A DNA stretch of 64,000 nt from the IMG/VR virus record IMGVR_UViG_2778261268_000002. One strand, given 5' to 3'. Each line of letters starts with the position of its first letter. The stretch's first letter is position 1. Below the pieces are notes generated by a model that saw only the letters and a list, made by a program, of their open reading frames with translations, had not been told where the DNA came from and did not search any database. The position numbers were made by a program, and so were the translations under genes. This document shows positions 5,049-62,931 of the stretch, piece after piece. This DNA comes from a virus. Its lineage: Duplodnaviria; Heunggongvirae; Uroviricota; Caudoviricetes.

Positions 5049-5483
5049 TTATGCTGTAGTCGTGTTTATGGCCATAACTGCGGTATATGTTTTGCCTACA
5101 TACAGCGAGTCTTCCTGGACACAAATAATGGCGATTGGCTTGTTCTCGTTATCCAGAACAACCAGAGTGTTGAATGGGTAGTTTTTCCCTTCCTGCAACT
5201 GGCTTTGATCAAGGTCCATTCGGACAGTAATTATCCCACCTGAGTAGGTTGGCACGAGGTTGATGGTGCAAAATTGACTGGTCAGTTCTGCCAGATCGAA
5301 AGCCTTTGGCAGTTCTCCAATCTCATAAGTGCCATCTCCTTTCTTAGTAACCAGCGAACTGGTACCGAAAACGGCCTTGCTGATTAAAAATCGAGAGCCT
5401 TTGTTAATGGACGATTCAGCGCGCCGCTGATAGTAATAGTCCAACAACTGACTCTTATAGAGGTTTGTTGAGACGTCAGACAT
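5049..5483 (-). CDS. Tail/baseplate-associated structural protein (position of P1 R)
   Basis: 144 aa; stop 12 nt upstream of the tail-fibre start; same operon. Confidence 0.5.
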   Translation of the reverse strand: MSDVSTNLYKSQLLDYYYQRRAESSINKGSRFLISKAVFGTSSLVTKKGDGTYEIGELPKAFDLAELTSQFCTINLVPTYSGGIITVRMDLDQSQLQEGKNYPFNTLVVLDNENKPIAIICVQEDSLYVGKTYTAVMAINTTTA

Positions 5484-37381: not shown

Positions 37382-37558
37382 ATTAGTGTAATATCACCTC
37401 AATGAATCGTGATTTATAGAGCGATTTAGCTGTTAGCCGCGACAGGCGCGGCGGCAAGTATGGCGGGGTAGTGACTCCTTCCCCATCATGACGCCGAGTT
37501 GCCAGGTTGACCATACGCCTAAGTGGCAACACCGAAGTGCGTTACGAGCTTCCAGTTT

Positions 37559-59296: not shown

Positions 59297-59958
59297 CTAC
59301 TCTAACGACAGCATACTTACAGCAATTGGTATTTTTTGCAGGCGAGGCTACTTGTCATCCTGACGCAAACTATTTATTGGAATTTGAGAGGTTAGCGTCA
59401 CCCGGTATCGTTCTGGAACTGGCCCAACAGGTGCTGGCCTTGAGACAAAAAGAGCAACATGAAAGTAATACGTGTAGATTGAATTTTGAGCAGTGGCTGG
59501 AACAGCAACGCGGAAAAATCGATGTGGACTGTGGTTGTGTGTCCACTGAAACATTCATGCACTGGCTGCGGGTAGCTTACGAGGCTGGCAACTATCCGGA
59601 TATTCCGGATAGTTCGGTGCCAGCGCCAGGAAAGGGCGTCACCGGTGAACGTATCCGCATTAAGCCGCATGTTTATCGCGAACTGGTTAACCGTCTCCAC
59701 GATACAGCGATCAAGTGTGCTGGCACCCAGCAATTACGAGAAAGAATTAGCCGTGTTTTGGGCGACGTTATTACGCCAGATCATCATAAACAAGCCGAGA
59801 AAAGTGACCTGGAAAGGTGTCACCTTGAGGCGGCATTAAACATTAAGCCGGGGCATACGCTTGGCATTATCGATGCTCTGTTGGTTCATAAGATGGCCAG
59901 GGCTTTATTGCCGCTGGTGGCTGAAAAACATGAGGTGGACCATGCCAACGAAAGCTGA
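59278..59958 (+). CDS. Hypothetical protein
   Basis: 226 aa. Confidence 0.45.
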   Translation: MAQKEMTTLTTAYLQQLVFFAGEATCHPDANYLLEFERLASPGIVLELAQQVLALRQKEQHESNTCRLNFEQWLEQQRGKIDVDCGCVSTETFMHWLRVAYEAGNYPDIPDSSVPAPGKGVTGERIRIKPHVYRELVNRLHDTAIKCAGTQQLRERISRVLGDVITPDHHKQAEKSDLERCHLEAALNIKPGHTLGIIDALLVHKMARALLPLVAEKHEVDHANES

Positions 59959-60226
59959 GTTACAGGCGCGCATAGATATTCTTGAAAAAGAGAATGCGAG
60001 TCTAAAAGGAATGCTGGCGCGGGCGGAAAGGGAATTATCAGGCAAATTATTGCCAGAAGAGCTGCCACCAGCAGATATACCTGATCGAGTGTCCTGGTGG
60101 ATGAAGTATTTCCGTGCACCGTGGGAGGCGTTTTGGTGCTACGACCATCGCAGATGGTGTGATGAGCTTGATAGCAGTTTCCCCTATTTTGCGGAAGGGA
60201 ACTCTTGCCCTGAATGTAGGAGTTAA
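59942..60226 (+). CDS. Coiled-coil / CxxC protein, paralogue 1
   Basis: ...WWMKYFRAPWEAFWCYDHRRWCDELDSSFPYFAEGNSCPECRS. Confidence 0.45.
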   Translation: MPTKAELQARIDILEKENASLKGMLARAERELSGKLLPEELPPADIPDRVSWWMKYFRAPWEAFWCYDHRRWCDELDSSFPYFAEGNSCPECRS

Positions 60227-60531
60227 TGATGACCGGCGAGCTTTATTTTAAAATGGCACGGGAGCGGCGTGTGCATCTGGATCGGATATTTCATCTCCAG
60301 AAGAGAGTAGAAGAACTGGAACGTCGTCTGAACTGTTATCCTGTTGATATGGTGTCTGCAATACCGCCGATTCCAATAGAAATGCAGATCCGCCTATGGA
60401 TGGAAGAATATGGAATGCCGTGGGAGATATTTTTCTGCTTCGACCATAAACAGTGGGTAGATGAGCTGGATAATAGTTTCCCATATTTCACAGAGAACAC
60501 ATGCCCAGTATGCAGGAAGAACGGAATATGA
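60226..60531 (+). CDS. Coiled-coil / CxxC protein, paralogue 2
   Basis: ...LWMEEYGMPWEIFFCFDHKQWVDELDNSFPYFTENTCPVCRKNGI. Confidence 0.45.
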   Translation: MMTGELYFKMARERRVHLDRIFHLQKRVEELERRLNCYPVDMVSAIPPIPIEMQIRLWMEEYGMPWEIFFCFDHKQWVDELDNSFPYFTENTCPVCRKNGI

Positions 60532-61052
60532 CAAAATTTGGAAAGCTGGAAGCTCATTTGCTAACTCGTAACTACCGCCATGATATACACCCATATAGAC
60601 AGTGGATCGATGAAAGCGAAGGAGTAGTTACATTCCCTCTATACAGGTTTGATGGGATGTTGGCTGGGTATCAGACATATAGACCAGGTGCTCCTAAGCA
60701 GCATAGCAATCCGAAGATGGCCCGGTATTTCACGCGATCACACGGCAGACAATTACTTTGGGGAACCTATCTTCCTTTAAAAGATGGCCCAATATGGATA
60801 ACTGAGTCTATTTTTAAGAGCGCAGCTGTACACAATGCGGGCGGCAATTCGTGGGCGCTGTTAGGTTCGACTTTCTCCGCAGGATTACGCCGTCAACTTG
60901 CGATGCTGCCGTATGACTTTCGTGTAATAGGTGACAATGATGCGGCTGGTGAATTACTTGTGAAGTCTTTCGGAAAAGGTTTTGTGGCCCCGGATCTTGA
61001 CGAGCTACAACCACATGAAGTGTCTCATTTGATTTTTAGCCATAGCCAATAA
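60528..61052 (+). CDS. Toprim-like domain protein
   Basis: 175 aa; IWITESIFKSAAV ... RVIGDNDAAGELL (conserved Glu and DxD pattern). Confidence 0.4.
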   Translation: MTKFGKLEAHLLTRNYRHDIHPYRQWIDESEGVVTFPLYRFDGMLAGYQTYRPGAPKQHSNPKMARYFTRSHGRQLLWGTYLPLKDGPIWITESIFKSAAVHNAGGNSWALLGSTFSAGLRRQLAMLPYDFRVIGDNDAAGELLVKSFGKGFVAPDLDELQPHEVSHLIFSHSQ

Positions 61053-61067
61053 GCATCTCTCCCCTTT

Positions 61068-61088
61068 GAGGCCACAATTAGTGGCCTT
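61068..61088. terminator. Bidirectional stem-loop between convergent genes
   Basis: GAGGCCAC-AATTA-GTGGCCTT. Confidence 0.5.
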
Positions 61089-61112
61089 AAACAATGTGTT
61101 TTCTACCTCGAT

Positions 61113-61694
61113 TTAGCCTCTATTATCGTTTTGCATTTCTCTAATCCGGTTCAGAACTACTTCATGCTGGGCTTGGATAGCGGCTTTTTCGTTTTCAAGT
61201 CGGGCAATAGACATCTCTAATTCTTTGCTGTACCAGGCGAGTTGGGCCAGGTTCATCCGGTTGTGGTCGAGAGTTGGAGACACTTCGACGCGATCCCTTT
61301 CTTCCTGCTTTAATGAGAAGAGATTCATCTCATCCCTTGAGGAAAATTCAGCAACAATTTCTTGTTGATGATCCGGTCGCTGCGGCATCCTCGCCAGTAT
61401 AAATGGCGGTTCTTTTGAAAACATGAATGACGGTTTAGACCGTGTTTTGACCCATCTAGCTTGCTGTCTTTCGGCAAGTTCACAGGCTTCATCATAGTTA
61501 TCTACAAAACCAAGCACGGATGGACGGTCCCACGCGCCACCATTCAGACAATAAACAAGAATTTTCCCGTCAGGTTCTGTAACTCCATAGGGATGGTCCC
61601 ACCAGGCGTCCAGCTGGGCTTTGGAGCGTTTCTCGTTAGGAGTGCAGTCAAAATTTTTGGGCAATGCAGGATCGAGAGGAATGCGGGCAGGCAT
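61113..61694 (-). CDS. Hypothetical protein divergent from humD (possibly SOS-regulated)
   Basis: 193 aa; promoter region shared with the LexA-box-containing humD promoter. Confidence 0.45.
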   Translation of the reverse strand: MPARIPLDPALPKNFDCTPNEKRSKAQLDAWWDHPYGVTEPDGKILVYCLNGGAWDRPSVLGFVDNYDEACELAERQQARWVKTRSKPSFMFSKEPPFILARMPQRPDHQQEIVAEFSSRDEMNLFSLKQEERDRVEVSPTLDHNRMNLAQLAWYSKELEMSIARLENEKAAIQAQHEVVLNRIREMQNDNRG

Positions 61695-61828
61695 GGCTAA
61701 TTCCTTATTAATTGATTAGTAACGAGGTTACGCTGATCCAGCGGTGATGAATAGTAGCAAAGCGCACAAAGTCATCAGAGGGGTTAAGATCCATAACGCG
61801 TTTGCACCAAAGGTGTCTCTTTAATGTA

Positions 61829-61848
61829 TACTGTATAAATGAACAGTA
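61829..61848. promoter_or_regulatory. LexA (SOS) box
   Basis: TACTGTATAAATGAACAGTA = CTGT-N8-ACAG, 20 bp upstream of the humD start. Confidence 0.7.
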
Positions 61849-61867
61849 TTATTGAGGTGAAAACGCT

Positions 61868-62257
61868 ATGGGCTTCCCTTCTCCTGCGGCGGATTATGTT
61901 GAAAGCCGAATTTCTCTTGATCAGCAACTAATCAGGCATCCATCAGCAACCTACTTCATGCGGGCAGCTGATAGCCATCACCGTGAGGGAATATTGCAGG
62001 GTGCTTTGCTGGTGGTTGATTCTTCGCTTACTCCAGTTGATGGTTCGCTGCTTGTGTGCGCTATGGAGGGTGAATATCGCATAAAGAGATACCGAAAGTA
62101 TCCGCGCCAGCACCTGGAGGATTTAAGCACCGGGAAGAAAGAGGCGTTACCAGTAGATGACGATGGATGCACGGGCAGTAATGCTGTGTTTGGTGTGATC
62201 ACTCATGTCATTAATGATGCCCGAAGTGGGGAATTTGATGATTGTCCGGTGATTTAA
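61868..62257 (+). CDS. humD: UmuD-like S24 peptidase
   Basis: 129 aa; LexA/UmuD-type self-cleaving peptidase fold pattern; preceded by a LexA box. Confidence 0.75.
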   Translation: MGFPSPAADYVESRISLDQQLIRHPSATYFMRAADSHHREGILQGALLVVDSSLTPVDGSLLVCAMEGEYRIKRYRKYPRQHLEDLSTGKKEALPVDDDGCTGSNAVFGVITHVINDARSGEFDDCPVI

Positions 62258-62298
62258 GCTGCAAAGTGCTGGTGCTTTATGCCTGTGACGTTTATAAT

Positions 62299-62321
62299 TG
62301 TGTACACATAACGAGTACACG
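62299..62321 (+). promoter_or_regulatory. phd-doc operator (two GTAC-centred palindromes) overlapping the promoter
   Basis: TGTGTACACA and CGAGTACACG immediately downstream of TATAAT (62293-62298). Confidence 0.6.
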
Positions 62322-62329
62322 AGGTGTTT

Positions 62330-62551
62330 ATGCAATCCATTAACTTCCGTACCGCGCGCGGCAACCTTTCTGAAGTGCTCAACAATGTTGAAGCCGGGGA
62401 AGAGGTTGAAATCACCCGCAGAGGCCGTGAGCCAGCAGTAATTGTCAGCAAGGCTACTTTCGAAGCCTACAAAAAAGCGGCGCTGGATGCTGAATTTGCA
62501 TCCCTGTTTGACACCCTGGACTCCACCAACAAGGAACTGGTTAACCGATAA
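62330..62551 (+). CDS. phd: Antitoxin Phd
   Basis: 73 aa [41 protein letters not shown]...; RBS GAGGTG; stop overlaps doc start. Confidence 0.9.
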
Positions 62552-62931
62552 TGAGGCATATATCACCGGAAGAACTTATTGCGCTTCATGATGCGAATAT
62601 AAGCCGCTACGGCGGCCTGCCTGGCATGTCAGATCCGGGCAGGGCAGAGGCCATTATCGGGAGAGTTCAGGCCAGAGTTGCCTACGAAGAGATCACCGAC
62701 CTTTTCGAAGTCTCCGCCACCTACCTAGTGGCTACAGCGAGAGGGCATATATTCAATGATGCCAATAAGCGTACCGCGCTAAACAGCGCGCTGCTATTTC
62801 TACGCCGTAACGGGGTGCAGGTATTTGATTCACCTGAACTGGCAGACCTTACTGTAGGCGCTGCGACTGGCGAGATATCTGTATCTTCTGTCGCCGACAC
62901 GTTACGTAGATTGTATGGTTCTGCGGAGTAG
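62551..62931 (+). CDS. doc: Toxin Doc (Fic-fold kinase)
   Basis: 126 aa [25 protein letters not shown]...[19 protein letters not shown]. Confidence 0.9.

Follow-up and report, generated by a model that had tools for sequence, protein, structure and literature searches.

The locus at 61113-62257 of the stretch of viral DNA analysed here (64,000 nucleotides, IMG/VR record IMGVR_UViG_2778261268_000002, henceforth the window) raises the question of whether a LexA operator situated between two divergently transcribed genes serves both genes, or only the one to which it lies closest. The rightward gene, humD (61868..62257, plus strand), is a 129-aa UmuD'-type open reading frame (ORF) with its ATG at 61868, and the leftward gene, lxr (61113..61694, minus strand; Upf94.2 in P7), is a 193-aa ORF taken from the ORF list of the window. 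The intergenic region between them is 173 bp long (61695-61867) and holds the LexA operator (SOS box) TACTGTATAAATGAACAGTA at 61829..61848 (no strand assigned), recognised by direct reading of the sequence and by its match to the consensus, with the arms CTGT at 61831-34 and ACAG at 61843-46. The 3' edge of the box is separated from the humD ATG by a gap of 19 nt, while the start of the box lies 134 nt from the lxr ATG. An initial sequence-only reading had proposed this box, at these coordinates and next to the UmuD-like gene, and direct reading of the sequence confirmed it in all three respects.

The neighbourhood is a familiar one. In megablast comparisons P1, P7, SJ46 and JL22 are 95.6-96.8% identical to the window region, and across 61160-62700 the DNA of the window is 96.5% identical to that of P1; by its sequence, the window is a P1-type phage-plasmid. 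The gene order, the gene orientation, the 20-bp box and the spacing from box to humD are all the same as in P1 (annotation of Lobocka et al. 2004). The P1 record NC_005856 (86837-87973) carries lxr with the product note "LexA regulated function", a protein_bind feature over the same 20-mer with the wording "LexA binding site in the regulatory region of lxr and humD", and a note stating that humD "functionally complements E. coli UmuD'". In the DNA match, the P1 lxr annotation covers the 193-aa ORF of the window. P1 has been annotated since 2004 with the site, with both genes and with the idea of their joint control by LexA, all of which are thus already known. Likewise, the 193-aa gene, initially presented as an unknown, is rightly described as functionally uncharacterised but already bears the name lxr in the P1 record.

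Differences from the relatives are few. Lxr has 193 aa and a P7-type C-terminus in the window, compared to 190 aa in P1, and the gene hot, which is present in P1, is missing from the window (no tblastn hit in the window). P7 and SJ46 have the same Lxr variant and the same box as the window. In P7-type elements, however, the gene upf93.6 (118 aa), missing in the window, directly follows the lxr homologue, and the P7-type records are 427 bp longer than the window across the lxr-humD region. Considering the evidence given below, we find it quite likely that the feature is the known humD SOS operator of a P1-type phage-plasmid, and that lxr has a promoter of its own and is probably not, or only marginally, controlled by LexA. 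In the undamaged cell a host LexA dimer would bind TACTGTATAAATGAACAGTA, to judge from its sequence and from the identical annotated site in P1 and P7. The operator is located directly upstream of the humD ribosome-binding site and would cover the likely -10/start region of the humD promoter. Following established SOS biology, DNA damage would lead to activation of RecA, self-cleavage of LexA and transcription of humD. The HumD protein, having the length of UmuD', would need no RecA-mediated cleavage and would pair with the UmuC of the host in a translesion polymerase resembling Pol V. The lxr gene would most probably be transcribed from its own promoter, near its start and outside the operator.

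The protein encoded next to the box fits this scheme. It falls within the HumD family (NCBIfam NF051876, HumD equivalog; 219.3 bits against a cutoff of 120, residues 1-129 of 129). It also matches Pfam Peptidase_S24, and is 98.5% identical to the HumD of P1. Residue 2 of HumD pairs with the first residue of UmuD' (structure 1UMU) and with position 25 of full-length UmuD (8GMT_B), and the HumD-UmuD' alignment has an E value of 2e-23. The Ser and Lys equivalent to the catalytic dyad of UmuD are kept in HumD according to the structure-sequence alignment, and the N-terminal 24 residues and the Cys24-Gly25 cleavage site of UmuD are missing. As HumD starts at UmuD' residue 1, it is made already at the processed length. 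In E. coli umuDC, as in the window, a near-consensus gammaproteobacterial SOS box is found directly upstream of a umuD-type gene. Unlike that operon, the window has a HumD devoid of the N-terminal 24 residues with the cleavage site and no umuC downstream, the genes that follow humD being phd and doc. The HumD of P1 reportedly complements UmuD' (McLenigan et al. 1999), and is said to be poorly expressed.

Comparative analyses show which of the two genes the box accompanies. In a scan of viral contigs, the box was present at all humD-linked P1-like loci (59/59), mostly with the 19-nt gap to the humD ATG. D6 and RCS47 have the order hot (same strand), box and humD, with the box spacing kept and lxr absent, and Cyrano, with a different upstream sequence and again no lxr, has its box at the same distance from humD. 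Six P1-like IMG/VR contigs (L147-L152), in which only the first 28 lxr codons are recognisable and the LexA box and humD are intact, provide a further natural example of humD retaining its box. Among more distant humD-type genes (45-70% identity), CTGT-N8-ACAG was found upstream of six out of six, those of N15, phiKO2, HK140, vB_Ecl_MII_003, Huey and yong1. The box ends 15-18 nt from the humD-type ATG in N15, vB_Ecl_MII_003, Huey and yong1 and 44 nt before it in phiKO2, and in HK140 the box precedes a short leader ORF. Every humD-type gene examined hence keeps a box, usually 15-20 nt from its ATG, while the neighbours on the far side of the box are unrelated to each other (tail fibre genes, gtr genes, dinI, hot and lxr). 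The operator is part of a portable box-plus-humD module carried by many temperate phages, and the predicted LexA control of humD is well supported. New in relation to the existing annotation is that the presence of the box follows that of humD rather than that of lxr.

The converse comparison is equally consistent. No box was found within 400 bp upstream at any of the 52 genome loci (0/52) or the 12 viral loci (0/12) that have an lxr homologue and no adjacent humD. Seven further contexts with an lxr homologue and no humD are also box-free upstream; these comprise a Klebsiella phage-plasmid, Pseudomonas plasmids, a Salmonella island, a Salmonella phage-plasmid (full-length homologue, 65%), an Enterobacter-type context (full-length homologue, 57% identity), a Klebsiella IncFIB/HI1B plasmid (full-length homologue of ~55% identity, interrupted in frame) and the short-form lxr homologues generally. 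Nor is the alphaproteobacterial LexA motif GTTC-N7-GTTC present upstream of the alphaproteobacterial lxr homologues. In P1-type genomes, lxr apparently just happens to sit on the other side of the operator. The initial proposal that both genes may be under SOS control is therefore strongly supported in its humD part, with the box distance conserved in at least 10 genomic contexts, while LexA control of lxr would, going by these comparisons, be less likely. Box-free distant homologues can also be compatible with a regulation acquired locally by the P1-type lxr. What follows is a shift of emphasis: the name lxr ("LexA regulated") goes back to a hypothesis derived solely from gene position and lacks comparative backing, and annotation pipelines that copy "LexA regulated function" may spread a guess. 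The Salmonella phage-plasmid with the 65% homologue (L023, L024) has a strong LexA box, TACTGTGTTTTCATACAGTA, elsewhere (5332-5351), where it adjoins, upstream, an unrelated 88-aa ORF (5050-5316, minus strand).

The signals for expression of the two genes were also compared. By direct reading, the ribosome-binding site of humD is GAGGTG (61854..61859, plus strand), located 8 nt before the ATG, and that of lxr is AAGGAA (61701..61706, minus strand), at a distance of 6 nt from its ATG. The P1-like elements, D6, RCS47, Cyrano, MII_003, Huey and yong1 all have a GAGG-type ribosome-binding site at the same place before humD. Promoter candidates in 61690-61875 were ranked using a rough self-made sigma-70 weight matrix. 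A stricter sigma-70 consensus scan of 61000-62400 returned zero promoters, and both promoter assignments are weak for this reason. The best candidate for humD is TTGCAC-19-TATACT (61802..61832, plus strand), the score of which, 8.1, is the highest on the plus strand and corresponds to the 75th-90th percentile of same-size segments of the window. The -10 hexamer of this candidate and the left arm of the box overlap. The homologous place holds TTCACA-18-TATACT in D6 and RCS47 and TTCAAA-17-TATACT in Cyrano; the conservation of TATACT is weak as promoter evidence because four of the six -10 bases belong to the LexA consensus. At the position of this candidate -10 (61827-61832 in the window), the P1 reference has TGTACT (L001 3169-3174), as opposed to TATACT in the window and the rest of the other 31 of 32 variants. 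The TGTACT of P1 might contribute to the poor expression reported for HumD.

The highest-scoring promoter candidate for lxr, and the top one on its strand (7.55), is CTGATG-16-TACTAT (61751..61778, minus strand); a TG lies two bases ahead of its -10 hexamer. The -35 element starts 50 bp past the edge of the box in the direction of lxr, leaving no overlap with the box, and the segment GTGATGAATAGTAGCAAAG, which holds the candidate -10, is invariant in 32 out of 32 distinct P1-like intergenic sequences. With this promoter the centre of the box would be placed near -95 of the lxr start, so repression by occlusion is not expected. Two other proposed promoters can be set aside. The PhumD of the P1 record (TTGATG-15-CATCCT; 61365-61391, P1 87080-87106) lies 440 bp upstream of the LexA operator, within the lxr reading frame, and with a score of 4.65 is probably a weak computational call. 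A P1 late, Lpa-dependent promoter upstream of lxr was also considered, and no match with two or fewer mismatches to the -22 boxes of LPhot and LPpac was found. Rfam gave nothing at E <= 1 across 60400-62700, and the folding of the lxr leader is no better than that of shuffled sequence (z = -0.6).

The principal alternative to a humD operator is a bidirectional arrangement, in which one LexA dimer at 61829-61848 represses humD as well as lxr and Lxr is damage-inducible; we regard this as rather unlikely. It would agree with the location of the box within the shared 173-bp intergenic region, with the wording of the P1 record, which assigns the site to both genes, and with the existence of weak minus-strand promoter candidates overlapping the box. 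These candidates (ATAATA-18-TACATT and TTCACC-18-TATACA), however, score 4.7 and 4.1, both below 6.0, the median best score of random 186-bp segments of the window, and the best candidate lies beyond the box. The asymmetry of the box, 134 nt from one ATG and 19 nt from the other, argues in the same direction, as do the box-free lxr homologues outside the humD neighbourhood and the retention of the box by humD wherever lxr is missing. Annotators have moreover not been unanimous, as the P7 record ascribes the same site to "regulation of humD expression" and leaves lxr, there called Upf94.2, unmentioned.

A precedent for two-way control is nevertheless found in phiKO2, in which an annotated LexA site lies between the divergent genes gp22 (DinI-like) and gp23 (UmuD-like), so that, as in the window, a humD-type gene and its box occupy a divergent intergenic region. 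The phiKO2 site would be a genuine two-way SOS unit. Another precedent for a divergent pair with one LexA operator is uvrA-ssb of E. coli. The phiKO2 arrangement differs from that of the window in several respects. The intergenic region is 77 bp in phiKO2 and 173 bp in the window; the partner gene in phiKO2 is dinI, a recognised SOS family, whereas the lxr family is otherwise never associated with a box; and the annotated -10 elements of both phiKO2 genes abut the site, whereas the best lxr promoter candidate of the window is situated away from the box. The phiKO2 record shows overlapping divergent -10 elements at the LexA site, and a humD-type gene divergent from a dinI-like gene across a LexA box is seen both in phiKO2 (L155 537-556) and in HK140 (L156 319-338).

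Published data on the two genes are available for P1. In an RNA-seq analysis of lytic P1vir infection, which was unstranded, the log2 fold-change of lxr in the wild type was 5.86 at 10 min and 10.43 at 30 min, and that of humD was 3.78 and 6.84, respectively (PMC8201110 Table S1). Late in lytic infection the read levels of lxr and humD, again unstranded, are ~12-fold apart, a difference that speaks against their shared repression; humD is among the least expressed phage genes, lxr is near the values of most late genes, and the host recA appears in the list of genes up-regulated on P1vir infection (PMC8201110). Coming from unstranded data on lytic growth with no SOS induction of a lysogen, these values are suggestive of lxr and humD not being expressed in step. 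Both genes were non-essential for P1 lytic growth in a CRISPRi study (PMC10695390), and a survey of P1-like elements describes humD as LexA-regulated (PMC9603915). No LexA-binding or induction experiment on humD or lxr was found in the literature searched, which extended to neither Lobocka 2004 nor McLenigan 1999. The further idea that the P1-type lxr is SOS-induced via a shared operator, and that Lxr acts on DNA either in damaged cells or while the element establishes itself in a new host, appears doubtful.

The preferred reading, that of a humD operator, also presupposes that the box is genuine. By itself, the pattern CTGT-N8-ACAG has no statistical significance, as it occurs twice in the 64-kb window versus 0.82 expected, and at least twice in 22 of 100 shuffles. 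The full site is another matter. TACTGTATAAATGAACAGTA agrees with the 20-bp consensus TACTGTATATATATACAGTA at 17 of 20 positions and is the sole site in the window with three or fewer mismatches to it (0.00 expected, none in 100 shuffles). With a weight matrix derived from 23 SOS boxes of E. coli, the scores of which are approximate, TACTGTATAAATGAACAGTA reaches 23.5 bits, placing it between the third and fourth best of the 23 E. coli sites, while the runner-up in the window reaches 10.3 bits, which is below every genuine E. coli site in the matrix. No other credible LexA box is present in the 64 kb. Among 32 distinct intergenic sequences of P1-like elements, both arms, CTGT and ACAG, are unchanged and five of the eight spacer positions vary, in keeping with purifying selection on the half-sites. 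A chance palindrome or relic regulating neither gene, as might be argued from the frequency of the degenerate 16-nt pattern, from the failure to detect a strong sigma-70 promoter beside the box and from the reportedly poor expression of HumD, is highly improbable given the extent of the consensus match, a score comparable to those of the best true E. coli boxes, the invariant arms flanking a drifting spacer, and the conserved position of the box before humD-type genes across unrelated phages. The other CTGT-N8-ACAG of the window (37430-37445; CTGTTAGCCGCGACAG) has a GC-rich spacer, falls outside the top weight-matrix scores and is most likely a chance match.

Lxr itself belongs to a widespread family. 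The protein matches phrog_6164 over nearly its entire length (E = 1.9e-131, positions 1-193 of 194), a family without a functional label in PHROG, and is 95% identical to a cluster of 190-aa E. coli homologues, with homologues of 90-95% in P1-like elements. No significant match was obtained in Pfam, NCBIfam, PADLOC or the PDB sequences, and NCBI pipelines tag relatives of Lxr as "DNA-binding protein". In an alignment of 43 homologues, the N-terminal domain of ~125 residues is strongly conserved, with invariant positions that include W31, W32, D33, C49, L50, G52, G53, D56 and R57, and a C-terminal coiled-coil helix of ~45 residues is limited to the long enterobacterial forms. The AlphaFold2 model has a pLDDT of 89 for the full length and 92 for the N-domain, which is built of two successive units, each with three strands followed by a helix. 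A Foldseek comparison of the model against viral structures gave nothing at E <= 0.001. The predicted fold is thus confident and unmatched, and bears a faint resemblance to DNA-binding modules of the AP2 type and the integrase-arm type. This similarity to small DNA-binding modules, a weak one, is the sole lead on the function of Lxr.

In PLSDB the lxr family is represented in 904 plasmid records, mostly large conjugative Klebsiella plasmids, and it is abundant on clinically relevant plasmids. It forms 478 clusters at 50% identity in a library of 1.8 billion proteins, and is hosted by plasmids, conjugative elements and phage-plasmids of alpha-, beta- and gammaproteobacteria. Many other members of the family have an N-terminal extension of ~60 aa, and no informative fused Pfam domain was found in ten longer members. 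The genes next to lxr-family members are mixed, and include a resolvase, a small helical ORF, SNase, a DUF736-like ORF, a WGR-motif ORF, recA/gp32 and H-NS. Contexts called with Pfam represent the backbone or accessory regions of mobile elements (plasmid or conjugative element).

In the window, lxr is followed downstream by a 183-aa Toprim/primase-like ORF (60501-61052), which matches phrog_849 ('DNA primase') at profile positions 143-333 of 435 only. This ORF is preceded by two tandem phrog_3797 paralogues (59861-60226 and 60226-60531), which are 52% identical over the C-terminal SFPYF...CPxCR motif and belong to an uncharacterised family. A different and tighter arrangement is seen in Pseudomonas plasmids (L009-L014, 4786-6040), where a short Lxr-N homologue of 135 aa forms part of a three-gene array: an ORF of 66-67 aa is followed after 10 nt by the Lxr-N gene, which in turn is overlapped by 4 nt by a serine resolvase gene, and the array adjoins RepA and a Fic/VbhA pair.
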